In this document: in pieces, positions 1,456 to 21,107 of the stretch
Position numbering within the stretch: the stretch's first letter is position 1
Layout: the number at the start of each line of letters is the position of its first letter
Assembly: GCA_050010835.1 (NCBI GenBank)
Contig: JBEKKG010000001.1
Span: forward strand, 1 to 36,643
Direction of reading: 5' to 3'
Source: Planctomycetota bacterium
GTDB lineage: Bacteria; Planctomycetota; SZUA-567; H5-PLA8
Length of the DNA stretch: 36,643 bases
Made by a program: the position numbers and the translations under genes
The notes under the pieces: model-generated
What the model was told of the DNA's origin: nothing
Databases searched by the model: none
What the model saw: the letters and a program-made list of their open reading frames with translations, nothing else

Positions 1456-1527
1456 TCCTGGAGCACCAGGCGCTCTCCTCACCAAGTGGAGGAGAGCGCC
1501 CCGCGGCGCACTCATCCGGAGGACAAA

Positions 1528-1818: not shown

Positions 1819-1884
1819 GGCCCGGCAAGGTCCGACAACACAATTCGGCATTCGTTTCATTCATCTTCTTTGCAGGGAGCTACC

Positions 1885-2226: not shown

Positions 2227-2371
2227 CTTAACTCTAGTTAAGCATCCCAGTCGTTCCATCAAGCAGGCAACACCGGGCAGGCACGCCGACTGATCCGTGG
2301 CAGCGCTGTCGCGGCGGCGTGTTGGCCCAAGGAAGACCGTGCCCTGAAAAAGGGCGGGAAGGAGTAGCAGT

Positions 2372-2599
2372 ATGGCAGTCTCAATTCGTCATGGCGTGAA
2401 CACCATCAACGCCGACAGTGTCGCGGGCAGGACCATCGCCGAAATCCGCGAGCAGGCCGCCGAGATCCTCAACGTCCCGGATAACGCGCAAGTGCGCGTC
2501 AACGGTTCGCCCGCGGCGGAAGACGCGGTGGTCGCGGACGGCGCCACCGTCGAGTTCGTCAAGGTCGCCGGCGAGAAAGGCGCCGAAGCCAACGCCTAA
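2372..2599 (+). CDS. Ubiquitin-like beta-grasp protein (ThiS/MoaD-like; PRTRC protein C-like)
   Basis: The 75-aa product contains ...VRVNGSPAAEDAVVADGATVEFVKVAGEKG-AEANA, typical of small beta-grasp Ubls with a Gly near the C-terminus. A strong RBS (GGAAGGAG) is present. It sits directly upstream of the E2-like, JAB and E1-like genes. Confidence 0.7.
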   Translation: MAVSIRHGVNTINADSVAGRTIAEIREQAAEILNVPDNAQVRVNGSPAAEDAVVADGATVEFVKVAGEKGAEANA

Positions 2600-2713
2600 G
2601 AAGTCCGCAGTAGCCATGTACTCTGTGCGGGAGGTGCCGTGTATCGCCACAACGATGCGGGCCCTCCCGCGCTTGTCACCACACCAAGACCAACGAAAGG
2701 GAGAAACCCCGTC

Positions 2714-3436: not shown

Positions 3437-3545
3437 ACCCAAGCGCCCACAGAAGTACCGCCATTACCTGCAGGAAATGCGCGAGGAACTGCGCACGCAG
3501 ATGCGCTAAGTGGATGTCGCATTTCATGGAAAAGGACTGCGAATC

Positions 3546-3722
3546 ATGACTCAAAGGACGATCATCCGCCTGCAGCAAACACGCCCCAAGTGCCGCTGTG
3601 GCCGGCTTGCCGACCGCTTCTTGCACGGCAGTTGGGTCTGTCTCTGCTGCCACCCTTTCAAGCGCCCAAGAAAGAATCGTGAGCCCTGCCGCACCGCGCC
3701 GGGACGCTCGGCGACATCGTGA
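3546..3722 (+). CDS. Possible small zinc-ribbon protein
   Basis: MTQRTIIRLQQTRPKCRCGRLADRFLHGSWVCLCCHPF... carries CxC...CxCC cysteines, and AAAGGA lies upstream. It fills the 3437-3744 gap, but it is short and in GC-rich sequence, so support is weak. Confidence 0.25.
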   Translation: MTQRTIIRLQQTRPKCRCGRLADRFLHGSWVCLCCHPFKRPRKNREPCRTAPGRSATS

Positions 3723-3744
3723 CCACCCTTCTGGGAGAAACATC

Positions 3745-4113
3745 GTGAACCCCAAAATGCACAAGACCATTCTGGCCGCGCTCAACCGCTGCCGCAACAT
3801 CACCCCGACAACTCTCGACGATTTCCTCGGACCGCTTCTGGACCGCGACCCCGACGATCTCGCCCGTCTGCCTGGCACGCCCGGCACTGTTCTGGCCGCG
3901 CAGTTCACCTGCTACGCCAAGAGCAGCGTCAGCCTGTCAGAGGTGCTGCGCCGCCAAATGGAACAAGCCGGCAAACTCACTGACGCGCTCTGGCGCATCC
4001 CCGCGCCCAAGCAAACACAACCCCAAAACAACCAGACTGAGGAGGCAAACCGTGATCCCGATTCTCTGCCTGACCAAAAACAGTGCCTCGCCTGCGCTGC
4101 TCAGTGCGCCTGA
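3745..4113 (+). CDS. Hypothetical protein, a cassette-internal gene between the E2-like and JAB genes
   Basis: GGGAGA lies 5 nt before GTG 3745, and an in-frame ATG at 3757 is an alternative start. The ORF-track start at 3598 gives an implausible N-terminus. I recognise no motif. Confidence 0.4.
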   Translation: MNPKMHKTILAALNRCRNITPTTLDDFLGPLLDRDPDDLARLPGTPGTVLAAQFTCYAKSSVSLSEVLRRQMEQAGKLTDALWRIPAPKQTQPQNNQTEEANRDPDSLPDQKQCLACAAQCA

Positions 4114-4888
4114 CCGCGCCGGCGACTCGCGCAGCCCGCCCAATGGCATCCATTACCTGCTGGCCAAGAGTGGCATCTACAAGGAAGTCAAGAACGCTTT
4201 CTATTCGGCGCGCGTCAAGGTCAACGGCATCAGCCACCTTGAAGACACCAAGGACAGCGTGGAACTGCACGTTCCCAAGCTGCCGCTTGTCCTGTTACGG
4301 CAAGCGGAAGCATTCTTTGTCGCCGCGTACAACCGATACCACTCCGAAGCAGTCGTGGTCTTGCTCGTAAGCCCGGCCAGCGGCCAGTGGCGCCTGGAGG
4401 TCCCTGACCAGAAGGTCGAAGGCGGAAGTCTTCACGTCGCCTATGACCCGACATCCGTGGCTGTGCCCGGGGGATTTGAAATCTTCGGCACTATCCACTC
4501 CCACGCCAGCGCCGGCGCGTTCCATTCCAGCACCGACGACCGCGACGAAGCGTGCAGCGACGGCCTGCACATCACCGTAGGCAATGTGGACAAGCCCATC
4601 CACAGCTATGCTGCCCGTTGGATGATCTGCGGCCAGGCTTTCCCGGCGGAGATCGAGGCTGTCGTAGAAACGCCTGCTTTGCCGGCAATTGACCCTGCCT
4701 GGCTGGAGAAAATCCACGAGGCTTGCCTGCCTCCGTTCGAGGTAGAGAACCTCTGGGGTGACGGTCCCGCGCGCGGGATTGACATGCCAGGAATTGATCC
4801 CGACATCCCGGACGAAATGCAGGCCGAGTACGAAGACTTTATGTGGGACGCCCACCAGCGCTTCGTTGACCGCCTGCCGCGACGTTGA
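4052..4888 (+). CDS. JAB/MPN (JAMM) metallopeptidase (PRTRC protein A-like)
   Basis: An exact JAMM motif HSHASAGAFHSSTD (H-x-H-x7-S-x2-D) spans 4496-4537, with upstream Glu candidates. GAGGAGG lies 6 nt before GTG 4052. Confidence 0.8.
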   Translation: MIPILCLTKNSASPALLSAPDRAGDSRSPPNGIHYLLAKSGIYKEVKNAFYSARVKVNGISHLEDTKDSVELHVPKLPLVLLRQAEAFFVAAYNRYHSEAVVVLLVSPASGQWRLEVPDQKVEGGSLHVAYDPTSVAVPGGFEIFGTIHSHASAGAFHSSTDDRDEACSDGLHITVGNVDKPIHSYAARWMICGQAFPAEIEAVVETPALPAIDPAWLEKIHEACLPPFEVENLWGDGPARGIDMPGIDPDIPDEMQAEYEDFMWDAHQRFVDRLPRR

Positions 4889-4986
4889 CACTTAAGCATC
4901 TCTCTCCCTGTGGGAGAGGGAAGGGTGAGGGCGTTCTTCACCTTGGCTCTTTCACATCACAATTCTCATTCATGGAGGCACAACGC

Positions 4987-5754
4987 ATGTTGAACTTCGT
5001 TCAGCACATAGTAGTCATCGGGCTGGGCGGCATCGGTACGTGGTTTGTGACGCCGTTCGCACGTTTCCTGCACGAACAGCGCTTCGGCGGCGAACTGGTC
5101 ATGGCCGACGGCGACACCTTCTCCGCGCTCAACGCCCATCGCCAGGACATGGAAGCCACGGACCTGGGCAAGCACAAAGCCGCCGCCCTGGCCGAACGCT
5201 TGAGCCGGACTATGCCCGGTCTGCACATACGCACCTTTACCGAGTACGTCACAGCCGACAACGCCGCCCAAGTGGTGAAAGAGAAGTCCCTAGCGATCGT
5301 CGCGGTGGACAATCATCCGGCCCGCGCCACTGTTGCCCGGCACGCCGCCAGCTTGAATGACGTGTGCGTGCTCTCAGCGGGCAACGAGAAATACGACGGC
5401 AACGTACACGTGTATCTACGCCGCGCCGGCAAGGATCTATGCACCTCGCTCTTGGAACGGCATCCTGAGATTGCCAAGAGCCGCAGCGGCGACCGCGCCA
5501 CGTTGGGCTGCGATGAGCTTATCACTCTGGGCCAGCCGCAGTTGCTTGTGACCAACTTCCTGGCCGCCACAGCCCTTCTGGTCGCGTTTCATGCTCTCTG
5601 GGACAGGGATGCCCTCCGCAGATCGCGCGTGAACCGGCCGTCCGGACTGCCCCAGGAGATTTTCTTCGACGTGCGTGCCCAGGCCATGACGGCCATCGCT
5701 ACGCCGATACAGCACGAAGTCCCATTGCCTGTACCTGCAGCCATCGCCAACTGA
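4987..5754 (+). CDS. ThiF/MoeB-family E1-like adenylyltransferase (PRTRC ThiF-family protein)
   Basis: It has a Rossmann motif VVIGLGGIGTW, followed by DGDTFSALNAHRQ and VAVDNHPAR as in ThiF/E1 adenylation domains. GGAGG lies 8 nt before ATG 4987. No CxxC zinc pairs are seen. Confidence 0.8.
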   Translation: MLNFVQHIVVIGLGGIGTWFVTPFARFLHEQRFGGELVMADGDTFSALNAHRQDMEATDLGKHKAAALAERLSRTMPGLHIRTFTEYVTADNAAQVVKEKSLAIVAVDNHPARATVARHAASLNDVCVLSAGNEKYDGNVHVYLRRAGKDLCTSLLERHPEIAKSRSGDRATLGCDELITLGQPQLLVTNFLAATALLVAFHALWDRDALRRSRVNRPSGLPQEIFFDVRAQAMTAIATPIQHEVPLPVPAAIAN

Positions 5755-7654: not shown

Positions 7655-10600
7655 ATGAATGACCTCATTCGCATGGCGACGCCCGAACTGGCCCGGTTCC
7701 TGAACGCCAAGTTTCCGGAGCTGGCGTCAGAGTGGTGGCAGAAGCATGTGGTGGATCGCCTAAGTTTCCAACAGCAACGGATGGTGCAGGAGCGAGGCCA
7801 CAAGACCCTCCAACAACTCGACTTTGCGGCCTTACTGCGCGTGTTTGACCAGAACTGGTATGAGCTTTCCAACGTGCTCAGATTGCCTCGCGAAGGCCGG
7901 ACTTGGGTGAAGGAACTGCAGACCGTCCGCAACAAGTGGGCGCACCTTTCCGCGGAAGCGATGCCAGCCAGCGATGTTTATCGGGATGCTGACACGCTCA
8001 GCAAGCTGTTGGTGATGATCGAGGCCCCTCAAGCATCCCTGGATTCCGTAGAGGCGCGCAAAGCCACTGCTGTAGCCGCGATGGCGAGCAATAAGAGCGG
8101 CACGGTTGAAGCATCCGCGAAACATGCCAACGAACCGGTCCCCCTTCGCGCCAATACTCCTCCGCTTCCTGCCACCCTGTTCAGTGTGGGAGACCTCGTC
8201 GCCCTTCGGTCGAATCCCGCGACGATTCTTCCCGTGATTGAGGTGATTCCCGGTGGTGGCGAATGCCGCTATCGAGTGTTTCAGAACAACGCCAAAGCAA
8301 CGTATTACGAAAGCCAGTTGCAGGCCCCATCCGGCGCGGCGGATAAGCGTAGAACGCTTACCGCCCGTGAGCTGCAAGCCCACCTGACGAGTCTTCAGAT
8401 TCTCTCGCCTTCCACCGCGAACCTCTTTTCCCTGCGTTCGGGGCGGGTTAAGTTTGTACCCTACCAGTATCGGCCGGTGCTCAAGCTCATCCGTTCTGAC
8501 CGCCCCCGCCTCCTGATCGCGGATGAGGTCGGCGTCGGCAAGACGATCGAAGCCGGGTTGATCATCAAAGAGCTGCGGGCACGGATGGATCTTTCGTCGG
8601 TGCTGATTATCTGCCCCAAGGCGCTGGTGGCTGAACGAAAGTGGTACCTGGAGATGAAGCGCTTCGACGAACACTTTACCGCGCTTGATGGCGGACTGCT
8701 TCGGCACTGCCTGCATGAGACGCATCTCGAAGGGGAATGGCCCGAGCAGTATGCCAAGGCTATCCTGCCTTTTTCCCTGTTTGATTCTGATCTCATTTTT
8801 GGCCGCACAGAACCGCGCAGACGAAGAGATCAGGCCTTGCTGGGCCTCGACCCGCCGCCAAAGTTCGATCTGGTTATTGTGGATGAGGCCCACCACATTC
8901 GGAACTCTGAAACCTTCCTGCACCAAGGGGTGCGCTATTTCTGCGACAATGCCGCTGCGGTGCTCTTTCTCACCGCAACGCCTGTTCAGTTGGGCAGCGA
9001 AGACCTTTATACCCTGCTCAATGTGCTGCGGCCTGACCTTGTAATGGATCACGCCAGTTTTGAGCAGATGGCCGCGCCTAACCGCCATATCAACGCGGGA
9101 GTTCAACATTGCCGCGCCACCCGCGTGGGCTGGCAGCGTGAGGCCCGCGCCAGCCTGGATGAAGTCGCTCAAACCGACTGGGGAAGCCTATTCCTGCGGG
9201 AATCACCGGCTTTCCAGAGCATCTACGACCGTTTACAGGGAGATTCCGTCTCTGATGCGGATCGGGTTGGACTAACCCGCGCCATTGAAGAGCTTTACAC
9301 CTTCAGTCCCTTGATCAACCGGACGCGCCGCCGCGACATCGGCGAGTTTACGACCCGAAAGCCAGAAACTGTCCCCATCGAGTTCACTCCAGCACAGAAG
9401 AAGCTCCACGACGGCCTGCTGGATGTGGTCGCGCGGATTCTCGCCTTCTGCCACGGCCAGCAAAACGTCAAGTTTATGATGACGACCATTCGCCGGCAGG
9501 CAGCAAGTTGCCTCTACGGCCTTGCTCCGCTTCTTAACGACATCCTGACCGGCAAGGTCAATCAACTCGAAATGATGGAGGCCAGCGACGACGAACAAGA
9601 CGCTGATTTGAGCTTCGTTGACCAGGTGCGGACTGACATTGCAGCCATCCTTGAACAGGCCCGCGACCTAGACCCGCACGACCCCAAGGTTGAGGCATTT
9701 GCTAAAGTCCTGAAGGAAAAGGGCAATCTGCCAAACAATAAGGCTCTCGTCTTCAGTACGTTTCGCCACACCCTGGCCTACCTCGCCCAGCACACGCAGC
9801 CCACAGGATTGCGCTACGGATTGATTCATGGCGATGTGCCTGATGACGAACGCACCGAAATACGCCGCCGCTTTGCCTTGCCCAAGGAAGACGTCGACGC
9901 GCTCGACGTGCTGCTTTCATCCGAGGTGGGGTGCGAGGGTCTCGACTTCGAGTACTGTGACTTTCTCGTCAACTATGACCTGCCTTGGAATCCCATGCGG
10001 ATTGAGCAGCGCATAGGCCGTATTGACCGCTACGGCCAGAAGAGTGAGACCGTTGCCATTGTTAATCTCATCACCCCCGGCACTGTGGATGCCGACATCT
10101 ACCAGCGCTGCCTGTGGCGCATCGGTGTCTTTCAGCACGCAATTGGCGGCAACGAGGAAATCCTCGGCCAGATCACCCAGGAACTCCACGACATCGCCGA
10201 GAGCTTCACCCTGACCCCGGAGGAACGCGAGCAACGGCTCCGCCAACTGGCGGACAATGGCATCCGCCTGATTCGGGAGGAACAGGAAATTGAATCCAGA
10301 CAAGCCGAGTTGTTCGGCCTGAATGTGCCGAACCAATCCTGGCAGCATGAGATCGCAGCGGCGGAAAGTTACTGGCTTTCCCCTCCCGCCATCCAGCGTT
10401 GTGTTTCGTCTTACCTGTCGGCGCGGTTGGCCACTGGCGCCGATCATCTGGTGGGCGAAAGGCCCCTCAAGACTCTGCGCCTCAGCCAAGAGGTCAGAGC
10501 TAAGTTGCTCGAAGATTACAAATGCCTGCCGCGCTCTGCCGAACCCGTTTCCCGCGAATGGGAGAAATGGCTCAAGGGCGGGCAACCGGCCTTGGCCGTC

Positions 10601-11230
10601 ACGTTCGATCAGGAAACCGCGGCTGCAAACCCCCAAGCCGTTCATCTATCAGTCATGCACCCGCTGGTGCGCCAGGCAGCCCGCTTCCTGCAACTTGACG
10701 AGCCGGCCTACACTACACTCGCGGTGCCAAGCCACGAAATCCCGGCCGGTGCCTATTGCTTCGCACTCTATCGCTGGAAGACGCACGGCGTGAAGTTGGA
10801 CGAGTTTCTAGTCCCGGTGGCCACCAATGCCGCAGTTGAAAATGCGCTGCTTGCGCTTCTGCAATCCGCCACAGACACCGCATGCGCCACACTCCCGCCG
10901 CACACTGAGTTCGATGCACTTGATGTCCTGCATCACCGCAAGTGGACCGCCGCGCGGGCCGACCACATTACGGCAAACCGCCAGCAGATCGAGCATCGCA
11001 TCCAGAGCCTGACGGTCAGCCACGGCGCCCGCTGCAAGGCGATTGAAGACCAGATTGCTCGCGCCACGAATGACAAGATCAGGCTGATGAGACAGAGTGA
11101 ACTGGCCCGGGCCAACGCTGACTTCAACCGGCGCATGGCCGAGCTTCAGCAAGCAGGCGGCAGAGGCGACATCCATGCCACCGCTGTGCTGTTCGGAACT
11201 ATCACGGTCACGAAAGGGGGAAGCCAATGA
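7655..11230 (+). CDS. SNF2-family helicase with an N-terminal Swt1-like HEPN domain
   Basis: HEPN motif RNKWAH (R codon 7928-7930, H codon 7943-7945). SNF2 motifs: LIADEVGVGKTIEAG, DLVIVDEAHHIRN, LFLTATPVQ, ALVFSTFRHT, SSEVGCEGLDFEYCDFLVNYDLPWNPMRIEQRIGRIDRYGQ. GGAGG precedes ATG 7655. The ORF-track start at 7508 lies inside repeat R1. Confidence 0.85.
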   Translation: MNDLIRMATPELARFLNAKFPELASEWWQKHVVDRLSFQQQRMVQERGHKTLQQLDFAALLRVFDQNWYELSNVLRLPREGRTWVKELQTVRNKWAHLSAEAMPASDVYRDADTLSKLLVMIEAPQASLDSVEARKATAVAAMASNKSGTVEASAKHANEPVPLRANTPPLPATLFSVGDLVALRSNPATILPVIEVIPGGGECRYRVFQNNAKATYYESQLQAPSGAADKRRTLTARELQAHLTSLQILSPSTANLFSLRSGRVKFVPYQYRPVLKLIRSDRPRLLIADEVGVGKTIEAGLIIKELRARMDLSSVLIICPKALVAERKWYLEMKRFDEHFTALDGGLLRHCLHETHLEGEWPEQYAKAILPFSLFDSDLIFGRTEPRRRRDQALLGLDPPPKFDLVIVDEAHHIRNSETFLHQGVRYFCDNAAAVLFLTATPVQLGSEDLYTLLNVLRPDLVMDHASFEQMAAPNRHINAGVQHCRATRVGWQREARASLDEVAQTDWGSLFLRESPAFQSIYDRLQGDSVSDADRVGLTRAIEELYTFSPLINRTRRRDIGEFTTRKPETVPIEFTPAQKKLHDGLLDVVARILAFCHGQQNVKFMMTTIRRQAASCLYGLAPLLNDILTGKVNQLEMMEASDDEQDADLSFVDQVRTDIAAILEQARDLDPHDPKVEAFAKVLKEKGNLPNNKALVFSTFRHTLAYLAQHTQPTGLRYGLIHGDVPDDERTEIRRRFALPKEDVDALDVLLSSEVGCEGLDFEYCDFLVNYDLPWNPMRIEQRIGRIDRYGQKSETVAIVNLITPGTVDADIYQRCLWRIGVFQHAIGGNEEILGQITQELHDIAESFTLTPEEREQRLRQLADNGIRLIREEQEIESRQAELFGLNVPNQSWQHEIAAAESYWLSPPAIQRCVSSYLSARLATGADHLVGERPLKTLRLSQEVRAKLLEDYKCLPRSAEPVSREWEKWLKGGQPALAVTFDQETAAANPQAVHLSVMHPLVRQAARFLQLDEPAYTTLAVPSHEIPAGAYCFALYRWKTHGVKLDEFLVPVATNAAVENALLALLQSATDTACATLPPHTEFDALDVLHHRKWTAARADHITANRQQIEHRIQSLTVSHGARCKAIEDQIARATNDKIRLMRQSELARANADFNRRMAELQQAGGRGDIHATAVLFGTITVTKGGSQ

Positions 11231-11562
11231 GCTTTCTCGATGAAGTCCAAGCCGACAGGCAGGAACTGGCCCACGTCCTGAAAAAGAATCGCGGAATCCC
11301 AAAATTCGTTGAGGATCTTTACCCTGAGCGCGCGCACTTCATTTACCGGCTTCTCGAGAACGCCGAGGACACCCAGCACGCAGGCGGGGGCCGCCCCACA
11401 CTGTCGTTCACGCTCGTGAACCAGGATACATTGCAGATACCAGGCACTGAAGGCGCCCTGATCATCAGCAACGACGGGTTGGGGTTCCGTGCGGAGCACG
11501 TGATGCCCTGTGTGCAGTTCGCAACTCAACTAAAGCGAAACAGGAAGGCTACATTGGAGTAA
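11227..11562 (+). CDS. N-terminal stub of a GHKL (Bergerat-fold) ATPase, in frame with the following giant gene
   Basis: YPERAHFIYRLLENAEDT (N-box-like ELxxNAxDA) and LIISNDGLGFRAEHV (G1-like) are present. The ORF stops before any G2 box. Its start overlaps the SNF2 stop in ATGA at 11227-11230. Confidence 0.55.
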   Translation: MSFLDEVQADRQELAHVLKKNRGIPKFVEDLYPERAHFIYRLLENAEDTQHAGGGRPTLSFTLVNQDTLQIPGTEGALIISNDGLGFRAEHVMPCVQFATQLKRNRKATLE

Positions 11563-11565
11563 ACG

Positions 11566-14500
11566 GTGCAAGACAAAGGCGAGATTGAGGAGTTTGAGTT
11601 TGGCCAAGGCGAACGTCTAACGGTTCGCCTGCACGGCCTCATCCGTAACTACCCGAAGGGACCTGGCATCATCAAGGAGTTCATCCAGAACGCCGACGAT
11701 GCGGGGGCCACAGCCATCAGAATCATACTCGACGGCCGCAATCACCGTACAGAGCGGTTGACAGCGCTGGAGGCTTCGCTTTGGGCGGGCCCCGGCATGC
11801 TCGTATGCAACAACGCGGTTTTCAGCCAAAAGGACTTCGAGTACATCCAGATGATCGGCGAGAGCAGCAAGTATGATACGGCGTTGAAAACCGGGCGTTT
11901 TGGGGTGGGCTTCAACGTCGCCTACAACGTTACTGACTACCCGCTTCTCGTCTCGGCGGACAGTCTGATCTGCTTCGATCCGCACCGAAGCCATCCCCTT
12001 GCCAAGAAAGTAAGACCTGGGTGGGGCTGGAAGCTGGGCCACAAGCTCTGGGAGAATTACCCAGATCTTCTCGCCCTCTTCCACGCTGGCGGGCTACAGT
12101 TCGGCGCACTCTCCCACCCGGGGACTATTTTTCGACTCCCCCTGAGAACTGCCGAACAGGCGAGAGCAAGCAATATCTGCAGTCAGCCGTTTACTATAGA
12201 CGATTTCAAAGCAATTGTCTCTGATGTGGCTAAAATAGCAGGGGATCTACTGCTATTCCTCAAACATCTCCGCTCCCTCAGTATGGAAGTGATCGAGGAA
12301 CAGAGTTCCGAGCCCAAGACTGTATTGCTGGCAAACACGAGCAATGCGGAGGAGGTACAGCTTGCGCGCGACCGAGTCAACGACGTAGCATTAGGGGATT
12401 GCCGCCAAGTACTGAGTACGTTACGGTCTCATCCTGATTCGGCCCCGCACGCAACCTACGACCACAAGATAAGCATCCGGTACTCTGGGGGCGACCGGGA
12501 AGAGACATGGCGAGTCGCCAGTGGCCTGTATGTGGACCGGCGGGCAGACGTCATCAGTGCGGCTGAAGCCATACTTCAGTATGAGGGTAAGGCTTTGCCG
12601 TGGGCTGGTGCGGCTGCCAAGGTGGAGCTTGATGGTGGCCTCAAAAAGCAAATGCGAGTCGTCCCGTTGGAGGACGGCCGGCTCTTCTGTTTTCTTCCGC
12701 TGCCAAGACACGTCCACCTGCCAGTCCATCTGAACGGCTTCTTCGACCTGGACTCATCCCGCGACTTTCCTACAGATGACGAGTCATGCAAGGGCAAGGA
12801 CGCCGACAGAGTTAAGTGGAACCGATGCCTCATGCGGCACAGCGTGTCACAGGCCTATGCGGCCCTCATTTCTTCCCTTGCTACGGAAGCCAGCCATATA
12901 CCAATCGGATACTACGCCATCTGGCCACACTTCGAGATGATGGATGGACTCCTGAAGGAGGTTAGCAAGGCTACTTACGAATACCTTGCAAACCAAGCAG
13001 TCATCAGGATTAGGGGTGGCTGGAAGAAACTTCTGGGCGTCTGGCTTCCCCCTTTGGATAAGTGGCCTGACCTTCAGCAGCCACTAGTAGCCCAGGGATT
13101 GTGGGTTCCCCACCCCCCCATTCCGCAGCACGTAGCCGATGGGTTCAAACTCGCCCCCGTCCGCGTAGATGTACTTACGCCACGGCAGCTCCGCGACCAG
13201 CTTAGGGTAAACACTGATTTGGACGTGCCATTCCGGCAAGCACCGAAGGTCCTGCTGCGCACACGGAAATGGCTTGTCACGCTCTTGAGGTTCTGCTTGA
13301 GCGATCGTCCGACTGATGATCTCGTCGGGTTACCGCTTGCATTGGGCGACGATGGGCATCTGCATACGTTTGGGCACAGCAACGGTGGTCTGACCATCCT
13401 GGCGGGAGAGGACGAGAAGGCCATCTTTCGCAAGTTCCGCCATTGGTTCATCGACTCTCGGTATGCTGCTGAATGCGGGCTCGGCCCTGTTCCAAGAGCG
13501 AAAATTGAGCAGATGGAAGTCAATTTGGTAGTGGCTAACCTGTACAAGATCCTTGATCCTAATACAGAGAAGAAGCCCCTTCGTGAATGGCTGCCCGGTG
13601 GAGAGCAGGCTCCGAACGAATCTTGGTTGATCCGCTTATGGGACTATCTGGGGCGGAACAAGGAACAGATTGCGAGCGGCTCTTACGAGCTTTTGCGGAG
13701 CTTCCCCTTTGTACCGAACCAAAAGGGGCAGCTATGCACCGCCGGCAATGCTCTAACACCGTTGGTGGCCCAGCGTGATATGCCTGGCAAGTTGGATCAA
13801 GCATTGCAGGCGTTTGACGTACCAATGGTGGGTGGCTCGACAGGGCTGATCGAGGCGGCGCGACACCTCGCGGATGCCTTCATTAACCAGAAGATGATCT
13901 CGCACCTCGCGGGGCCAGACTTGGCGGATACGCTACATGCACAGGCTAAGGCGGGGGTAAAGCAACCAACGCAATACGACCCGATGGTTCATGATGCATT
14001 GCTGGAGTTTCTGGCCGACCCACGATGGGAAGGCAAGTATACGAAGGATCAACTGGGCAAACTCTCGGAGCTGGTCATTTTACCAACCATGGACGGCAGA
14101 CTCATATCCGCAAGGGCCGAGAACCTTTTCCTGCCCAGCGGCTTTCAACCACCCCCGTTCGCTACCGGAAGGCATGTTCTGGTGAAGAGGAACGAGCGGT
14201 GGCTCCTATTGCTGCGTATGTTGAACGTACGCTCTCTGGATGCCGCCACGTTTATCCGCGAGGTACTTGTGCCGCTCTACCCGATTCTGGACGAGAAAGG
14301 GCGTTTGAATGCCTTGGCGTGGCTGCAAGACAACCTAACACATATTAAACGAGAGTTGACGGAGCTCAACTCTGAGGGCGCCTCTGCTCTTGACAAGGTA
14401 ATCAAGCAGGCAAGGTGGGTTCAGTGCGAAGACGGCCAGTTGCGGCCTCCGTATTCGGTATATAACCCACACTCTAAGGTTGTCCGTCAGGTTCTTGGAG

Positions 14501-17484
14501 ACAGTGTTCCCTATCCAGATCTAAAGGTCTACGCCGCGTCGGAAGACTGCTATCTTCGCTTTTTCAACGAACTGGAAATGCAAGGTTCACCAAGGCCTGA
14601 AGATATACTGGCCCATATTGACCATCTCCGTAACCGTGTCCTGGCGATGGGCGTGGATGTACCAAAGGCCATGTTGTCAATTCTGGCCCATCTTGTGGAG
14701 CGGTGGAACCACTATGATGCTTCGACAATTACGGACAAACAGGGCAATCGAGTGTTATTCGTTGACGCGTTGAAACGGCGGGAATGGCTGCCGGCCCAAC
14801 GGGACATGAAGAGACTGGAGAACTACTATGCGGCAGCCGAACCGCCGCGGCTACTGTGTCGGGCAGATGAATTGTACCCAGTACGTCTCGGCCACTTGGT
14901 GGCCAGTCAGGCACCAATTGCAGACTTCCCCGAGCCAATGCGAGCGGTAAGAGACGCATTGGGTTTCCCCAAGACGGTCCCCATTGAAATTCTCTTGAAG
15001 CATTTTGACCGCGTACTTGAGGTGTTCGAGGCCTCTGACAAGAGCGATGCCTCATTGAAGAGCTTGCGAAAGACTATAATCGGCATCTATGAGGAGATTG
15101 GCAGGCGCTATGTGGCAAGACAAAGGCCGGAAGGCAGTGCGGACGGTAATTCTGAAGGGGATGACGGCGAGGACTCCCCCGGCCCCGAGTTCCAAGTTGA
15201 TGCATTACGAACACGCTATGCGACCCGCCGCTGTCTCTGGGACGACAAGTCAAGAAGGTTTTGGGAGCCGCAGAAGACCTACCAGTGCCCAGTTCACTTT
15301 TTGCATCCCTTTCGGCAGCAAATCCTGATCAAAACGCCGCAGGCGGCGGATCAAGGTCTGGCTGCCCTTGGCCGCAGAGATGAACCATCGCTGGCAGACC
15401 TGATTTGTTGTCTCCGCGAGCATTCCGAGGCGGCTGCAGGCAAACCAGTCGCTGAGGACACCATTGCTGCCATTCTCAAGATATATGACCGAATCGGGCG
15501 ATTACTGCAGGACGGTGCCTCCTCAGAGCAGCCTTGCATCGCCAGAACGCCGGTCTTGACAACCTGTAATTGCATGGTTGCGGCGGACGCGGTTTTCGAA
15601 CAAGATACTTTACGGTTTGAAGGGGCGTTCCCTGACAGCCAATTCCACTTGGTACACCAGCGAGTGGATCCAGGGTTCATCAGGGCAGCGAAGATTTGCA
15701 GGCTCTCCCGTGCGGTCATAGAGCATCTAGCCCAAGAGCCAGTACCCCTTGGGGAAGGGATGCTTGTTAATGCTTGTCGTAACTATACGCTGGCTTTGAG
15801 AACGTGCGAGTTCAGCAAAGGCATACAGCGGTTAATCCAGGCAGAACACGGACGGGACTGCATTGTGGATCTTTCATGGCTCAAGAGCGTCGTTGTCAGA
15901 GCTGTCAGCGAGATACATACTACATTAACGCTACAACGACCAGATGGGCAAGTCCTGAGTGGCGCCACCGTTTCAGAAGTTTTCGTCGAGAAGAACGGAA
16001 ATATTATCTACGTTGCTGACGAGGTTGCCCTACAGCACGCCATTTACCTCGCCAAGGTCATTAACCAGCGATTGGGGCAGTACGGACTTCGTGACGGCCT
16101 GAACTTGTCCCTTATCATTGGTTTGTCACCCGAGCTGGTCGACAGAGCATTGACGAAAGCCCACGTACCTCAACTGGTGGCCTTCAACGCTGACGAGGAC
16201 AGTGAATCGGAGGAAGCGGTCGGGGACATCTACGAAGAAAATGGGGAGATCGTTAAAGCTAATGATGAGGAGCCAGGACAGGCAGCAGGTGCTATAACAA
16301 ATTCTGTTGAGGTCGGTGCGGATACAGGCACAACTGGCGCGGCCAGTTCGGTACTGCGTGCAGAGAAAGTATCGAAGCCCCCTCCTACATGTGTGTCGGG
16401 CGCCGCTTCCGGCCAGTCGGCGACCACCAAGCCGGAGGCTGCCCCAGGCACGGTCGAGAGCAAGGGATCAGTTGCAGACCAGAACGATCAAGCGCCGGCG
16501 GCGCAACCGGTCGTTCCCGAATCTGTAACTCGTGCCCGTGTCGCAGCCGAGTTCCTGGCCATGTTGAGCCGGTCGGGCAAGACAGCCGCATCTGCTACGG
16601 CTGACCACGAAGATGCGCCGGTGGGTAACCCAGACCGACGAAGGGAAAAGGTCGGCAGCGAAATTGTACAAGGCGTCGAGGAGGAGCCCAACCAGAAAGA
16701 CCGGAGCCGCGTAGTGGAGCGACACGTTTGGGAACAAAAGGACGAGAACGTGCGGCAGTCACTTTTGGCATGGTATGGCGGAAAGTGCCAAGTCTGCGGC
16801 CATACGTTCCTCAAGCGTGACGGCCTGCCCTATTTCGAGGCATTCTTGATCGTACCCCACACCGCGGCGCGCTGGGCGAGTTCCCAGCCTGGGAATGCCA
16901 TGTGCTTGTGTCCCACCTGCGGCGCCAAGTGGCTTCATGCCGCAGTAGACGCTACGGCGCTGCCAAGGCAGGTGCGAGATTTCAGGGCGATACGAGAGGG
17001 CGGCACATATCCATGGCAGGTTCACATTAAGCTCGCCGGCGAAGATGTGCGGATCACCTACTCCGAACGCCACATGCTTGACCTTCAGGCATACCTGCGC
17101 GAAGTCTTTACTGAAGAGGTAAAGAGCGACGAGGCACCGGTTGACACAAGCGTCCCACGCGAGACCGGCGTCGCTACTGGAACAGCTCCCCACCATGGCA
17201 ACCAGTCTGTGGGGGAATTGGCGGGGTACGGCGAAGAGCTTCTTCGGCGGAAGAAGCAGGCAAAATGCAGCACAGAGAAGTTCCTCCTGCTTTTGCCGGC
17301 AGCTGATCGCGAGAAAGGCCGTCAGGCCCTCATGGCCGCCCGTTTTCTTTCGTGGTGCAGGAACTTCGGCCTCGATGAGATTCGCGCGCGGATGCTTCCG
17401 CTCTCCGTTGCCATCGCTACATGCACAGGGACGGATGGCGTACCTGCCAAGGATGAACTGGAGCGGGTCATCACAGGGCCGTAA
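11566..17484 (+). CDS. Giant sacsin-like GHKL ATPase (1972 aa) with an acidic low-complexity linker and a C-terminal degenerate HNH/zinc-finger module
   Basis: IKEFIQNADDAGATAIRIILD, GRFGVGFNVAYNVTDYP and LFCFLPLPRHVHLPVHLNGFFDLDSSRDF match the sacsin repeat-region ATPase pattern. A D/E-rich linker sits near 16190-16290. The tail reads CQVCGHTF...EAFLIVPH...GNAMCLCPTCGAKWLH. Confidence 0.8.
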   Translation: MQDKGEIEEFEFGQGERLTVRLHGLIRNYPKGPGIIKEFIQNADDAGATAIRIILDGRNHRTERLTALEASLWAGPGMLVCNNAVFSQKDFEYIQMIGESSKYDTALKTGRFGVGFNVAYNVTDYPLLVSADSLICFDPHRSHPLAKKVRPGWGWKLGHKLWENYPDLLALFHAGGLQFGALSHPGTIFRLPLRTAEQARASNICSQPFTIDDFKAIVSDVAKIAGDLLLFLKHLRSLSMEVIEEQSSEPKTVLLANTSNAEEVQLARDRVNDVALGDCRQVLSTLRSHPDSAPHATYDHKISIRYSGGDREETWRVASGLYVDRRADVISAAEAILQYEGKALPWAGAAAKVELDGGLKKQMRVVPLEDGRLFCFLPLPRHVHLPVHLNGFFDLDSSRDFPTDDESCKGKDADRVKWNRCLMRHSVSQAYAALISSLATEASHIPIGYYAIWPHFEMMDGLLKEVSKATYEYLANQAVIRIRGGWKKLLGVWLPPLDKWPDLQQPLVAQGLWVPHPPIPQHVADGFKLAPVRVDVLTPRQLRDQLRVNTDLDVPFRQAPKVLLRTRKWLVTLLRFCLSDRPTDDLVGLPLALGDDGHLHTFGHSNGGLTILAGEDEKAIFRKFRHWFIDSRYAAECGLGPVPRAKIEQMEVNLVVANLYKILDPNTEKKPLREWLPGGEQAPNESWLIRLWDYLGRNKEQIASGSYELLRSFPFVPNQKGQLCTAGNALTPLVAQRDMPGKLDQALQAFDVPMVGGSTGLIEAARHLADAFINQKMISHLAGPDLADTLHAQAKAGVKQPTQYDPMVHDALLEFLADPRWEGKYTKDQLGKLSELVILPTMDGRLISARAENLFLPSGFQPPPFATGRHVLVKRNERWLLLLRMLNVRSLDAATFIREVLVPLYPILDEKGRLNALAWLQDNLTHIKRELTELNSEGASALDKVIKQARWVQCEDGQLRPPYSVYNPHSKVVRQVLGDSVPYPDLKVYAASEDCYLRFFNELEMQGSPRPEDILAHIDHLRNRVLAMGVDVPKAMLSILAHLVERWNHYDASTITDKQGNRVLFVDALKRREWLPAQRDMKRLENYYAAAEPPRLLCRADELYPVRLGHLVASQAPIADFPEPMRAVRDALGFPKTVPIEILLKHFDRVLEVFEASDKSDASLKSLRKTIIGIYEEIGRRYVARQRPEGSADGNSEGDDGEDSPGPEFQVDALRTRYATRRCLWDDKSRRFWEPQKTYQCPVHFLHPFRQQILIKTPQAADQGLAALGRRDEPSLADLICCLREHSEAAAGKPVAEDTIAAILKIYDRIGRLLQDGASSEQPCIARTPVLTTCNCMVAADAVFEQDTLRFEGAFPDSQFHLVHQRVDPGFIRAAKICRLSRAVIEHLAQEPVPLGEGMLVNACRNYTLALRTCEFSKGIQRLIQAEHGRDCIVDLSWLKSVVVRAVSEIHTTLTLQRPDGQVLSGATVSEVFVEKNGNIIYVADEVALQHAIYLAKVINQRLGQYGLRDGLNLSLIIGLSPELVDRALTKAHVPQLVAFNADEDSESEEAVGDIYEENGEIVKANDEEPGQAAGAITNSVEVGADTGTTGAASSVLRAEKVSKPPPTCVSGAASGQSATTKPEAAPGTVESKGSVADQNDQAPAAQPVVPESVTRARVAAEFLAMLSRSGKTAASATADHEDAPVGNPDRRREKVGSEIVQGVEEEPNQKDRSRVVERHVWEQKDENVRQSLLAWYGGKCQVCGHTFLKRDGLPYFEAFLIVPHTAARWASSQPGNAMCLCPTCGAKWLHAAVDATALPRQVRDFRAIREGGTYPWQVHIKLAGEDVRITYSERHMLDLQAYLREVFTEEVKSDEAPVDTSVPRETGVATGTAPHHGNQSVGELAGYGEELLRRKKQAKCSTEKFLLLLPAADREKGRQALMAARFLSWCRNFGLDEIRARMLPLSVAIATCTGTDGVPAKDELERVITGP

Positions 17485-17669: not shown

Positions 17670-18896
17670 TCACTTGGCCGCGACCAACTCCGCCGCCCGT
17701 GTGCCGGCCTGGGCGACGACCTTGGCCGCGGTGCTCTTGAGCTGCTCGGTAAAACGTTGCACCTGCGCCATCAAACGCATCGCCTCGCGCTCCCCATTCC
17801 TTGCGTCTTCCAGGGCTGTCAGGCACGCCCGCACGCGGCCTGCCGCCAGCTCTGCTCTTGCGTGCAGCAGCGCGTCCCGCACGGCAATGTTGTTCGCTTC
17901 CACTGCCTGGCCCAGGTTGGTCAGCACGCGGTCAGTCATGAGCTTTTCGTTGAGACCGCTGAGAGCCTGTTGTGCTTCAGCCTGAATGTCCTCAGGCAGT
18001 TGCGCGAGGTCGTGCTTGAGATCCACGTACTCGGCAGCGTCAAGCCCGGTGATGTTCTCGGTGAGCGCTCTATAGCGTGCGTACTCGGTCTCGACCTTGC
18101 GCTGGGTCTCGGCAAGGGCCTCCAAGCGTTCCAGCGCGACCGCGCGCAAGGCTGGTTGACGTGCGCCATTGTCTCTGATGGCCTGCTCCGTCTCCTCCAG
18201 TTCCGCCAGGACGGTTGCGTGATCTGCAACATCCTGCTGCGCCACATCCGTGAGCGCCTCCTGGGCTTGCTCTACCTGCTGTAGCCGCCGCCTGGCTTCT
18301 GGCGGCCGCGCCGGCAGTGTGCGCACGGCGTGCCCTACCCATGAGCCGCCGTTGCCGGCCTGGAATACCTGTGTGCTGAAGCTGTAGACCAGCCACACAA
18401 TCGCCAGCGCGTACAGCAGGCCCGGGATGAGGAAGAGTTCTTCCGCCGTGCTAAGCAGGCTCGGATCGGCCAGGCGCATCGTGCCGTAGCCTGCCACGAA
18501 CGACACCGCGGCTGTCGTGGTCCAACTGACCTCATAGAACCGCCTAAACACAGCACCCACAAGTACGCCCAGCAGCGTAAACAAGCCGACGCCAGCAATG
18601 GGGGCCAGAGCAACCAGTTGCAGGTGGCCTGCCACTGCCAGGGAGGTACTCATCAGCAGCGCCAGGCCGACAGCCACGGCCGTGCCAGGCTTGCCCAGCT
18701 TGTCCTTGAGCGGCCGGACAGTGATGCCAAGGAGGATCATGAAGAACACCGCCGCGTAAAAGACAGTGCTCCACTGGGAGCTCAGCACAAGCGTCCGCAG
18801 GGTCTCCGAGGGGTTAAGCGGCGCGGCCAAGACAGGTGGCAGCCCGGCGATTAGCAGACCCGCCAGGGTTGCGGCGCGGCGCGTTGCCGTTTTCAT
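17670..18896 (-). CDS. Polytopic membrane protein (about 5-6 hydrophobic segments in the first ~175 aa) with a ~230-aa charged helical/coiled-coil C-terminal tail
   Basis: Hydrophobic segments include AATLAGLLIAGLPPVLAA, VFYAAVFFMILLGITV, AVAVGLALLMSTSLAVAG, LAPIAGVGLFTLLGVLVGAVF and LFLIPGLLYALAIVWLVYSF. The remainder is E/A/R/Q/L-rich. Its start overlaps the upstream stop in ATGA at 18893-18896. Confidence 0.7.
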   Translation of the reverse strand: MKTATRRAATLAGLLIAGLPPVLAAPLNPSETLRTLVLSSQWSTVFYAAVFFMILLGITVRPLKDKLGKPGTAVAVGLALLMSTSLAVAGHLQLVALAPIAGVGLFTLLGVLVGAVFRRFYEVSWTTTAAVSFVAGYGTMRLADPSLLSTAEELFLIPGLLYALAIVWLVYSFSTQVFQAGNGGSWVGHAVRTLPARPPEARRRLQQVEQAQEALTDVAQQDVADHATVLAELEETEQAIRDNGARQPALRAVALERLEALAETQRKVETEYARYRALTENITGLDAAEYVDLKHDLAQLPEDIQAEAQQALSGLNEKLMTDRVLTNLGQAVEANNIAVRDALLHARAELAAGRVRACLTALEDARNGEREAMRLMAQVQRFTEQLKSTAAKVVAQAGTRAAELVAAK

Positions 18897-19510
18897 CGCC
18901 TGCCTCGTGCACTCGCATGTGTGAGACTGATGCGCGTGACGATCCGGCTGCGTTCCTGCTGGTAGCCCGCCACCATGCCGGCGATCTCGACCGAAAGCTC
19001 CCGTGCTTCCTGCTCCAGTTTCTTTAGCAGCGTCAATTGCTTGCGGGAGCCACGAACGCGCCCCTGGCTCAGCAGCATGAGTGCTGCAACTATCGCTTCC
19101 GTGAATGCCTTGGTGTTCGCCACCACTCGTTGTTTCAACCTGCGCGTCCGTATACCAGGGAGAAGCCGACGCAGTGCCGCAGCCAGTTCTCTGCGGATAG
19201 CTGCCTGTGTTCCGGCGGGCAATGAGGTCGCGCCCTGACGCGCTGCTTTGCGGGTGGTCGCGCCCGTGTCTGGCTGGCGGCTCAGCGCAAGCAAGACTTG
19301 GAGGTCCCGCTCAACCGCGCGCTTGCTCGGGACCAGGCGGCACAGAGCCGGGCTGGCCAGCACAAATGCCCGTGTGGGGCGAGATTCGTTTCGTGCGAGG
19401 ACGCGGGCGATCTCGTGCAAGCGTGCCAGCACCGAGGTGCTTTCCAAGTGCGTGTGCAGTGGCGGCGGGCCTGTCTTGGTGCGTGAATCGAGTGTGGGTT
19501 TCCGTAGCAT
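18893..19510 (-). CDS. Hypothetical Arg-rich helical protein
   Basis: A 205-aa ORF translationally coupled (ATGA) to the membrane protein gene. Third codon positions are mostly G/C. I see no motif and no obvious RBS. Confidence 0.5.
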   Translation of the reverse strand: MLRKPTLDSRTKTGPPPLHTHLESTSVLARLHEIARVLARNESRPTRAFVLASPALCRLVPSKRAVERDLQVLLALSRQPDTGATTRKAARQGATSLPAGTQAAIRRELAAALRRLLPGIRTRRLKQRVVANTKAFTEAIVAALMLLSQGRVRGSRKQLTLLKKLEQEARELSVEIAGMVAGYQQERSRIVTRISLTHASARGRR

Positions 19511-19604
19511 GGTTGCCGATAGCGGATAGTGGCATCCTGTTTATCAATCTTTGCTGTCACTCCCAAGTCGTCGCTGGCACTCGCCACGACACGGGGACAG
19601 CGCG

Positions 19605-21107
19605 CTACCATGTCGGCAGGCCATACTGCTTTTTCAGGGTGTTGTAGCAGGCGAAGGCGTCCTTCCGGGCCGCCCGCGTCGCCCGTTCCTCCGCTTCGCG
19701 GGCCGCAGCCTGGACGGTCTTGCGGCTGCGCCATTGCCACACCGCTCGCGCTTTTGCGATGATGCCCACGGCGCGGCCAAGCGCCCGCTGTAGGCCATCT
19801 GGCGGTGCCGCAATGGTGGGCTGGGGCTTGCGCAGAAAGGCCGTTATGCCGAGCTCCCGCAGGTAGACCATAAGATCCTGCTCGACGGCAAGAAGCTGCT
19901 GCCACAGGTCGCCGCTGACCTCTTCAAACAGCGCCACATCATCTCCCTGCCGGTAAGCTATGTAGTGCTCAATGTCCTCATCGGTCCAGCAATAGGCACG
20001 GTACTGAACGATAACCCGCTCGGGCACCGGCGCCCGCTCACGCGCGTTTGCCTGTGCACGCCCGAGACACTGTATGCTCACCAGCACCACAGCGTATGGC
20101 CCGCGCGCCGAAACCAGCTTTCTGGCGAGCAGGTCCACCGCGCGCAAACGGACCTCAAATGTGCCCGGGAGCTCCGGCAGGTCGAGCTGGCCAAGCGAGA
20201 GGTTTTGACGCCGTAGCGCGCGCAAGCTAGTGGTGAGTGACGCCAACTGCAGCCGCGCCTCACTGTGGTATGTCCGCACGCTCTGCAACAGCAATCCGCG
20301 CCGCTTGCCCAGTTCACGCCACGTCGCATCCTTCCATCCGTAGTAGCGCGTGAGCTTCTGGATGAGCACGTCCTGCAGTCTCGCGCTGACCGGCAAGTCT
20401 CGCACGGACTGCGCCAGCGCGGCATTACACGCCGGCGCCTCCCGCACCCAGGCGCCCGGAACGCCGGTCCCCAGCGGCAGCCGGCGCAGACCAAAGAACA
20501 TGTCAGGCAAGTCAGACGCGTTCAGTTGGTGCGCCACCGCAAAGAGGCCATTGGGGTTCACCGCGCCGCCCTCCACCACCTGCACCCACCGGCTCTTGAG
20601 ACCCGCGTCCGCCTGCGCGCCGGCATCACCCTCTTGCTCGCTCTCCACGTACTGCGCCATGCGCCGATCAACTTCGTGCAGCTCCTGCGCGATCTTTGCG
20701 AGCGTCAACGCAGCTTGCTGCAACCAGGTCACCTGCTGCGCCACGCGATCTTCCGCCGACGCGCGCTGCTGGAAAACTGCGTCAAACCCGCTGCTCTGCG
20801 CTGCAACAGCGGTGTTGTCGCTGATCGTCCTGAACTGGTAACCAAGATCACGCAGCATGCTCTCGATACCGGCCTGCACACCCGCCCCCAACACGCCAAA
20901 GCCCATGTACTCAATGGTGCGCGTGAATCCGAGCGGCTTCGGGAAGTCAGTCTCAACGACCTGCCCTAGCGCCACCTCAAAGAGGTCCCTGGCGTGCCCC
21001 ACTTCGATGCCGAACCGCTGCGCGTACCAGGCGAAATAGTCCTGCGCGTTGTCCGTACCAGCGGCGGCTGTCGTTACGGCCATGATGCCGCATGAAAGGG
21101 TACGCAT
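19605..21107 (-). CDS. Hypothetical 500-aa protein (no recognisable family)
   Basis: It is the longest ORF in the region and has coding-like third-position G/C bias. No P-loop or other catalytic motif was found. An alternative start is ATG 21083. Confidence 0.6.
   Translation of the reverse strand: MRTLSCGIMAVTTAAAGTDNAQDYFAWYAQRFGIEVGHARDLFEVALGQVVETDFPKPLGFTRTIEYMGFGVLGAGVQAGIESMLRDLGYQFRTISDNTAVAAQSSGFDAVFQQRASAEDRVAQQVTWLQQAALTLAKIAQELHEVDRRMAQYVESEQEGDAGAQADAGLKSRWVQVVEGGAVNPNGLFAVAHQLNASDLPDMFFGLRRLPLGTGVPGAWVREAPACNAALAQSVRDLPVSARLQDVLIQKLTRYYGWKDATWRELGKRRGLLLQSVRTYHSEARLQLASLTTSLRALRRQNLSLGQLDLPELPGTFEVRLRAVDLLARKLVSARGPYAVVLVSIQCLGRAQANARERAPVPERVIVQYRAYCWTDEDIEHYIAYRQGDDVALFEEVSGDLWQQLLAVEQDLMVYLRELGITAFLRKPQPTIAAPPDGLQRALGRAVGIIAKARAVWQWRSRKTVQAAAREAEERATRAARKDAFACYNTLKKQYGLPTW

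Follow-up and report, generated by a model that had tools for sequence, protein, structure and literature searches.

A widespread helicase and sacsin-type ATPase gene pair, and a putative derived copy with a Tiamat-like hybrid protein, in a Planctomycetota contig

Results

Three linked genes in a Planctomycetota contig

The window analysed here is the whole 36.6-kb contig JBEKKG010000001.1 from a Planctomycetota metagenome-assembled genome (MAG). Between positions 7655 and 17484 it carries three co-directional open reading frames (ORFs) on the plus strand: a gene for an SNF2 helicase with an N-terminal HEPN domain (ORF1), a 111-codon stub (ORF2) and a gene for a protein of 1972 amino acids (aa) with an N-terminal sacsin-type GHKL ATPase (ORF3). 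An original prediction, made from the letters of the window, had described this arrangement and proposed it as an uncharacterised defence module; the three linked ORFs were confirmed. The proteins of the locus were searched with Pfam, with NCBIfam and its cut-offs, and with the PADLOC v2 models.

Pfam, PADLOC and alignment identify ORF1 (nucleotides (nt) 7655..11230, plus strand, 1191 aa) as a Swt1-type HEPN domain fused to an SNF2 helicase. As had been predicted, the N-terminal domain is a HEPN_Swt1 match (PF18731, 4.5e-18; aa 9-122, nt 7679-8020) containing the Rx4H motif RNKWAH (aa 92-97, nt 7928-7945), and the helicase motifs could all be located. The SNF2 N-lobe (nt 8459-9076; SNF2-rel_dom, 3.8e-18) contains GVGKT (nt 8531-8545) and DEAHH (nt 8882-8896), while Helicase_C (nt 9686-10036; 6.2e-20) contains QRIGRIDR (nt 10007-10030). 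ResIII was matched as well, and a conserved C-terminal extension of ~320 aa lies 3' of Helicase_C. The best PADLOC match of ORF1 is DrmD (PDLC02623, 1.9e-111, aa 178-1063). In NCBIfam, however, the DrmD equivalog NF038317 scored 310.8 bits against a cut-off of 610, and the similarity to RapA (4.1e-57) is likewise sub-threshold at 194 bits against 576. Both the N-terminal HEPN domain and the last 310 aa of the helicase lie outside every PADLOC v2 model.

A metagenome scan queried with the helicase alignment gave at least 536 confirmed stretches, from which 80 loci (L080-L159) with helicases 45-82% identical to ORF1 were analysed. Across 61 full-length homologues, 279 alignment columns reach at least 95% conservation, and ORF1 matches 274 of them, the five departures all being conservative; where HEPN is present, 58-59 of 61 homologues retain R92, N93 and H97. 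The HEPN domain is frequent, not obligatory, in this helicase family. It is present in 68 of the 80 helicases, and the other 12 have either no N-terminal domain or a different one (e.g. DUF2283). In the two closest helicases, L083 (9479-10060) and L086 (equivalent region), which are 76-79% identical to ORF1 in the core, an unrelated ~190-aa N-terminal domain without a Pfam match replaces HEPN; N-terminal domains have therefore been swapped even among close relatives.

The helicase is paired with a sacsin-type ATPase across phyla

The original prediction expected the two large genes of the locus to recur as neighbours elsewhere. We scanned genomes (one per species) for the ORF3 family, which is related to TmtA, the protein of the anti-phage system Tiamat. 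No SNF2 gene adjoins a long TmtA homologue in any of the 57 genome loci recovered, of which 30 have the full 10 kb upstream by manual count. Therefore the literal pair in the window, a helicase with a giant TmtA body, is not a conserved pair; a shorter partner recurs instead.

Six other genome loci, from Latescibacterota, Hydrogenedentota, Binatia (two), Verrucomicrobia and Gemmatimonadota, encode an SNF2 helicase 50-58% identical to ORF1, with HEPN detected in three of them. In all six the helicase is followed by a protein of ~1045-1061 aa that begins with a sacsin-type GHKL domain and shares 33-38% identity with the ORF3 C-terminus over its last ~190 aa. The same pairing was found in Paenibacillus. 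Among the metagenome loci, the partner follows the helicase in 67 of 67 cases with more than ~300 nt of sequence past the helicase stop, including variants with an inserted gene, while the 13 loci lacking a partner match extend no further than 233 nt downstream. The start of the partner usually falls between -10 and +137 nt of the helicase stop, and its usual length is 1003-1213 aa, typically ~1050 aa.

A few partners are longer. Tail-bearing partners of 1538-1706 aa that are strongly TmtA-like occur at L107 (PDLC03966, 1.8e-177) and P0216, and together with P0178 these give three long TmtA-like partners that adjoin the helicase independently. The P0216 locus lies next to McrBC and Mrr, and P0178 has a GmrSD-HNH gene and a helicase without HEPN as neighbours. 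Wherever the context of a full-length gene with the tail was examined, a helicase of the ORF1 family lay next to it.

Taken together, the helicase and its sacsin-type partner are a widespread two-gene module that has no PADLOC v2 model, reaching at least seven phyla, a conjugative plasmid, 579 clusters of the partner's tail domain and more than 500 metagenome helicase matches. In the searchable literature we found nothing linking Tiamat or sacsin-like ATPases to SNF2, and the pair is undescribed there. The prediction that the locus belongs to no named system thus holds for the helicase and sacsin-ATPase pairing; it fails for the giant protein, which PADLOC recognises as TmtA. When the 128 ORFs neighbouring the pair at 27 loci were scanned with PADLOC, no third conserved gene emerged and no family matched more than three of them; type I restriction-modification, SoFic, AbiEi and NERD-UvrD genes were scattered near the relatives.

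Several loci depart from the simple gene order. At L161 (1223-10590) a GmrSD_N-HNH gene lies upstream of a HEPN-less helicase, and at L082 (2606-12335) a 1278-aa SF1 helicase is inserted between helicase and partner. The Hydrogenedentota locus L059 (6322-13081) has two tandem sacsin-type partners (1041 and 1061 aa) after one HEPN-SNF2 gene, of which only the second is strongly similar to ORF3 in its tail. On the Ensifer adhaerens conjugative plasmid pCTYH.Ch1_3 (L163, NZ_CP118613.1, 7821-17542), helicase and partner, a canonical pair spanning PWG15_RS35910-RS35900, are followed downstream by a TM0106 RecB-like nuclease.

The window shares with these loci a helicase of the same clade, the Rx4H motif in HEPN and the tail. 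It differs at the helicase stop, where the ~1000-1100-aa (rarely 1500-1700-aa) partner is replaced by a 111-codon remnant and then a 1972-aa hybrid.

ORF2 is the remnant of a resident partner

ORF2 (11227-11562, plus strand, 111 codons) had been predicted to be a GHKL stub and a component of the module. Its ATG at 11227 does overlap the SNF2 stop in ATGA, and its sequence includes a GHKL N-box together with a G1-like box. Its matches are to the NCBIfam sacsin domain and to the PADLOC TmtA models (5e-10), in the latter only to the N-termini (first ~90 positions); Pfam gave no match on ORF2. Its first 48 residues are identical at 38 of 48 positions, counted from the alignment, to the N-terminus of the L083 partner, and its identity to the partners of the closest loci is 47-71%. 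The second half gives a gap-free alignment with L148p and L107p, two of the long partners, after which the homology moves to another frame: nt 11505-11567 encode ALCAVRNSTKAKQEGYIGVNG, 62% identical to AICAVGESTKDKNKGYIGEKG of L148p. In the intact relative P0273 the sequence runs on in one frame (...SEHVDALCRVGRSTKVKQEGYIGERG).

The remnant stops within the G2 box (KIGRFGVGF) at nt 11567, exactly at the first codon of ORF3, and ~113 codons of the resident partner survive. Because the G2 box is missing, the stub cannot be an ATPase. The high N-terminal identity, the frameshift and the stop inside the G2 box mark it as a remnant: judged by homology, ORF2 is a frameshifted, truncated leftover of the canonical partner (pseudogene remnant, 11227..11567, plus strand) and no component of the module.

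ORF2 and ORF3 share a reading frame, with only TAA ACG between them (11560-11568), and read-through would fuse two GHKL N-termini. We considered read-through of the TAA and rejected it, as ORF3 and its homologues have collinear starts and the stub, unlike intact relatives, carries a frameshift; the common frame was judged a coincidence.

ORF3 carries a Tiamat-type body

ORF3 (11566-17484, plus strand) starts with GTG, has a GGAG 6 nt upstream and is 100% identical to NCBI protein ABSE73_00070. Its N-terminus is a sacsin-type ATPase, as predicted (Pfam SACS, 1.1e-59; aa 16-252, nt 11611-12321), with the N-box at nt 11677-11709 and the G2 box at nt 11887-11916. Residues E38, N42, D44 and D45 and the sequence KTGRFGVGFN are invariant across 21 homologues. 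The ~1300 aa that follow had been described as unassigned, but they proved homologous throughout to TmtA (PADLOC PDLC03965, 7.5e-128), the match covering aa 11-1631 of ORF3 and positions 10-1218 of the 1370-position profile. The nearest homologues, at 29-38% identity, are nearly all proteins of 1800-1950 aa with SACS and a C-terminal DUF3883. ORF3 is collinear with them from residue 1 to ~1540, and conservation with long TmtA homologues stops near aa 1530-1550. By its SACS and TmtA profile matches, then, the ORF3 body (aa 1-1540, nt 11566..16185) belongs to the Tiamat (TmtA) family.

Most of the listed homologues carry DUF3883 (PF13020). Pfam found neither DUF3883, at E up to 1, nor DUF3684 in ORF3; at that threshold only SACS and a weak G3P match appeared. 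An AlphaFold2 model of aa 441-1560 had a predicted local distance difference test score (pLDDT) of 85.8, and its Foldseek search against the PDB yielded nothing above generic noise from helical repeats (E ≥ 8e-3, TM ≤ 0.11), with no hidden nuclease.

The verified TmtA is a 1590-aa Bacillus cereus FORC_005 protein annotated 'Hsp90, DUF3684, DUF3883', which constitutes the single-gene anti-phage system Tiamat (Millman et al. 2022 preprint, Table S2); a later survey places Tiamat among the single-gene PD-(D/E)XK systems. TmtA and ORF3 both have an N-terminal sacsin/Hsp90-type GHKL ATPase and a long body, and the short canonical partners match the TmtA models over the N-terminal half only (~1e-50). 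Unlike Tiamat, ORF3 lacks the DUF3883 (PD-(D/E)XK) nuclease and a Pfam DUF3684, ends in a degenerate HNH/zinc module instead, directly follows an SNF2-HEPN helicase where Tiamat is a single gene, and is only 38% identical to its nearest homologue. Because it lacks DUF3883 and, apparently, single-gene status, we do not file ORF3 as Tiamat. It has its own start codon and GGAG, yet occupies the partner slot of the SNF2-HEPN module.

The ORF3 tail is a degenerate HNH domain shared with the canonical partners

Beyond the body lies an acidic low-complexity linker (aa 1541-1659, nt 16186..16542, plus strand), bounded by the end of TmtA conservation and the start of tail homology near aa 1660; it is the likely point of a domain swap. 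It leads into the C-terminal tail (aa 1660-1846, nt 16543..17103, plus strand), a degenerate McrA-like HNH or Cys4 zinc module with the cysteine pairs CQVC (nt 16786-16797) and CPTC (nt 16909-16920).

The distribution of the tail was determined by an exhaustive HMMER search with the last 333 aa of ORF3 against 1.8 billion representatives, which was needed because a word-indexed homology search with the tail alone returned only two proteins. The tail domain occurs in 579 clusters at 50% identity, with best matches at 44-49% identity. Among the best 150 matches it is almost always C-terminal on proteins of 1030-1090 aa, sometimes of ~1500-1700 aa, and ORF3 is the only one of ~1970 aa. No PADLOC v2 model covers it.

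The original prediction of a Cys4 HNH-like tail stands as regards the fold but not as regards a nuclease effector. The tail profile matches McrA (PDB 6ghc, 6.6e-7) and also TagI (6ghs), and an AlphaFold2 model (pLDDT 84.6) retrieved 6ghc as the top Foldseek match, weakly, with Cas9 second. Compared with McrA, both CxxC pairs and the Asn are retained. However, 'EVHHVIP' of McrA aligns to 'FEAFLIV' of ORF3, which places Leu1761 at the general-base His, at the end of strand beta-1. Among 183 relatives this position is Tyr in 136 (74%), Glu in 16 and His in 7. Because the catalytic His is missing, the tail was not counted as a nuclease effector; we treat it as a putative zinc-stabilised, HNH-derived binding module. 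H1836 is invariant in 182 of the 183 relatives, and ORF3 keeps all residues that are at least 80% conserved except for two conservative changes, I to V and L to M, a pattern indicating that the tail is under constraint.

A 126-aa C-terminal extension unique to ORF3 and the stop codon complete the gene (17104..17484, plus strand). The extension (query residues 207-333) had no match among the 1.8 billion representatives and none in Pfam, and it does not resemble the Zn-ribbon extensions that L107p and P0178 carry. Several long partners have their own Cys/His-rich extension after the tail, with CPxC...H...H and CxxC...CYxC patterns (L107:18240-18605; P0178 aa 1534-1626; C-terminus of P0124).

ORF3 combines a body and a tail not found together elsewhere

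The ORF3 tail is absent from all of the 120 best body homologues, and the tail-bearing proteins of ~1500-1700 aa share no body with ORF3. Since the body homologues lack its tail and the tail-bearing proteins lack its body, ORF3 is a hybrid. Among the six closest relatives of the helicase, the partner tails share 48-60% identity with each other but only 20-25% (at most 27%) with the ORF3 tail, where the family-wide correlation between helicase and tail identity (r = 0.47) predicts 37-45% (z -1.2 to -2.1); this speaks against a resident origin of the tail.

The long partners of the L107/L148 type, which the second half of the stub resembles, bear tails of the ORF3 type (33-35% identity). Because the ATPase part of the stub and these tails belong to the same kind of partner, the ORF3 tail could possibly be the leftover 3' end of the resident partner, in which case ORF3 would be a chimera formed in situ. 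The body has a slightly lower GC content at third codon positions (0.585-0.659) than the SNF2 gene and the tail (0.679-0.73), a hint too weak to date or prove an insertion.

The arrangement was also recovered outside the MAG. A 5737-nt contig in the Logan assembly of run SRR7027834 is 100% identical to window positions 9709-15445 and crosses both the helicase-stub and the stub-ORF3 junctions; the body-tail junction (~16.2-16.5 kb) lies outside it and is carried by the MAG contig alone. A search for direct or inverted repeats at the junctions found nothing meaningful, and the left junction does not lie within a repeat. A promoter and terminator scan did no better than on shuffled sequence.

The locus lies among mobile-element and defence genes

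Upstream, positions 1486-5754 hold a PRTRC-like cluster recognised by Pfam (DUF2958, Prok-E2_D, Prok-JAB and ThiF). The PRTRC set is typical of integrative conjugative elements, which suggests that the whole region lies on such an element. Scans of the window for tRNAs and Rfam families were empty, and it yielded no integrase either.

The prediction of a defence-island setting with Gabija-like genes was borne out by a complete Gabija system at 31020-35224, 13.5 kb downstream, with GajA (2.3e-274) and GajB (2.3e-239) both full length and their genes overlapping. A gene in 26776-30713 described as Ppl-like is instead a TrlF-family AAA-like ATPase (PHP-ATPase): it passes the NCBIfam TrlF cut-off (545 against 350 bits) and fails that of Ppl (209 against 1000). 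The TrlF-family gene is followed after 9 nt by one for a protein with Schlafen AlbA_2 and HATPase_c_4 domains that weakly matches pAgo-associated PADLOC models, and the two genes may form a two-gene unit. Between the SNF2/ORF3 locus and these other defence genes, three tightly packed ORFs (408, 205 and 500 aa) occupy the minus strand at 17670-21107. They gave no significant Pfam, NCBIfam or PADLOC match, only a sub-threshold SF-assemblin coiled coil, and may represent a system not yet characterised. Neither drmA, drmB (DUF1998) and drmC (PLD) nor a methylase turned up when the window's other large ORFs were scanned with Pfam. Beside the relatives of the module in other genomes and metagenomes lie McrBC, Mrr, GmrSD-HNH, type I restriction-modification, AbiEi and SoFic genes.

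Discussion

Relation to known systems

Several described systems share parts of this architecture. ORF1 resembles the SNF2 proteins of the group that includes DISARM DrmD, DpdE, BrxH, HmaA and ZorD, having both the SNF2 core and a DrmD-like C-terminal region. In contrast to DISARM, it falls below the DrmD cut-off and the window has no DrmA, DrmB, DrmC or methylase. Membership in Hma was considered and rejected: HmaA matches at only 3.8e-38, the ATPase matches are all to TmtA, and there is neither an Hma model match nor a methylase.

Eukaryotic sacsin combines SRR ATPase repeats with DnaJ and HEPN. The module described here resembles it in architecture, uniting a sacsin-type GHKL domain (Pfam SACS) and HEPN in one functional unit, but in the module the two reside in separate proteins, the HEPN domain is Swt1-type rather than HEPN-T, and there is no ubiquitin-like or DnaJ domain.

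Prokaryotic operons coupling MORC/paraMORC GHKL ATPases to SWI2/SNF2 helicases and HNH nucleases have been predicted in contexts resembling restriction-modification (Iyer, Abhiman & Aravind 2008, PMC2292703). The present locus likewise links a GHKL ATPase gene to an SNF2 helicase and an HNH-fold module, but here the GHKL domain is of the sacsin/TmtA type, the HNH domain, joined to the ATPase in one protein, has no catalytic His, and the helicase carries a HEPN RNase. The fusion of a Swt1-like HEPN domain with an active motif to a SWI2/SNF2 ATPase has been catalogued (WQE_15321; Anantharaman et al. 2013, PMC3710099, Table 1). ORF1 has the same fusion with Rx4H conserved; that survey, however, reported the fusion only, without a sacsin-type partner gene. 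The HNH domains of EcoKMcrA and TagI (6ghc, 6ghs) align with the tail, including both CxxC pairs and the Asn, whereas ORF3 lacks the general-base His and has no SRA-like reader domain.

A derived copy of the module

We regard the locus as probably, though only just, a derived copy of the two-gene module that has undergone a sensor swap and serves in defence. In the ancestral form, gene 1 would encode an SNF2 double-strand DNA translocase, usually with an N-terminal Swt1-type HEPN RNase. Gene 2, immediately next to it and often overlapping, would encode a sacsin-type GHKL ATPase distantly related to TmtA, usually of ~1050 aa, ending in a zinc-binding tail derived from HNH that has lost its catalytic histidine. 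In the Planctomycetota contig the resident gene 2 would have been destroyed, frameshifted and cut inside the ATP-binding G2 box. At the break a hybrid gene would take over, made of a 1540-aa long TmtA body of the DUF3883 type, an acidic linker and a tail that replaces the DUF3883 nuclease.

For the mechanism we infer, from the domains present, a defence role in which the GHKL protein would use ATP to sense or clamp foreign nucleic acid or a phage cue, while its tail would bind DNA or serve to dock the helicase. The SNF2 motor would translocate on double-stranded DNA, and the HEPN RNase would deliver a toxic or restrictive output through RNA cleavage. At HEPN-less loci a neighbouring GmrSD-HNH or RecB-like nuclease may cleave DNA instead. 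The outcome would be restriction or abortive infection. ORF3 would then be a swapped-in sensor working with the intact SNF2-HEPN protein, a role we favour because ORF3 has lost its own nuclease and carries a partner-type tail, and because the helicase is undecayed.

A more specific version is, in our estimation, possible but rather doubtful: the tail derived from HNH may serve specifically for docking, so that a single SNF2-HEPN output machine could accept a variety of GHKL sensors, and the window may record a recent swap in which a Tiamat-type body placed on such a tail displaced the resident sensor.

Alternative explanations

Several observations weigh against a sensor swap. The ORF3 tail does not appear to be of the type found on the partners of the closest helicases, and tail and helicase may therefore be poorly matched, leaving ORF3 to act alone. 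The tail also departs from its family at two typical positions (Leu in place of Tyr at 1761, Ser in place of Asp at 1773). Canonical long TmtA proteins stand alone in the 57 genome loci, and no nuclease was found in the ORF3 body. HEPN cannot be the universal effector, since 12 of the 80 helicase homologues lack it, and the roles of sensor, docking module and effector are putative assignments from domain identity. An alternative that we consider unlikely, yet the most serious of the competing accounts, is that the locus holds two unrelated units: a Tiamat variant, ORF3, would have landed in a defence hotspot and wrecked the resident module, leaving the SNF2-HEPN gene orphaned and possibly idle while ORF3 works by itself. 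The tail discordance is the best argument for this account, and it agrees with the definition of Tiamat as a single gene, with the lack of SNF2 neighbours at long TmtA loci and with the separate start codon and GGAG of ORF3. But without DUF3883 and with a His-less tail, a stand-alone ORF3 would have no recognisable effector. The consistent adjacency of full-length tail-bearing genes to this helicase family also argues against it, as do the conserved columns retained by the helicase, which shows no decay.

A non-immune function is a good deal less probable. The SNF2 and sacsin-ATPase pair might be a housekeeping machine for DNA transactions such as repair, RapA-like recycling of transcription or chromosome organisation, an idea that draws on the sub-threshold RapA similarity of the helicase, on the degenerate state of the tail nuclease and on the presence of MutL, Hsp90 and topoisomerases among the GHKL ATPases. 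Against this, the module is patchy across phyla, occurs on a conjugative plasmid and, in the window, lies next to a PRTRC-like cluster resembling that of an integrative conjugative element. Its accessory effectors vary (HEPN, DUF2283, GmrSD-HNH, RecB-like), its neighbours are restriction-modification, abortive infection, McrBC and Gabija genes, and its nearest named relative, TmtA, is a verified anti-phage protein. Finally, as the window is a MAG contig and the combination in ORF3 is unique among the homologues retrieved, the hybrid could be a chimeric join made during assembly. We judge this very improbable, given the identical Logan contig spanning both ends of the stub, a left junction outside any repeat, and the fact that body, linker and tail of ORF3 lie in one frame with the conserved tail residues kept.

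Implications

In summary, TmtA has relatives among the sacsin-type ATPases that are obligately paired with an SNF2 translocase, in most cases one bearing a HEPN RNase. The shuffling of effectors and sensors within this module family is typical of immune systems. If the swap reading is correct, the Planctomycetota window would be a natural domain-swap experiment, in which a nuclease was exchanged for a partner tail and the resident partner was pseudogenised. The module would also provide a prokaryotic setting in which a sacsin-type ATPase and HEPN form one unit, as in animal sacsin. We know of no mechanism for Tiamat. Should the docking interpretation hold, the long body of Tiamat would be its sensor and the C-terminal domain an exchangeable output, giving a first handle on how Tiamat works.

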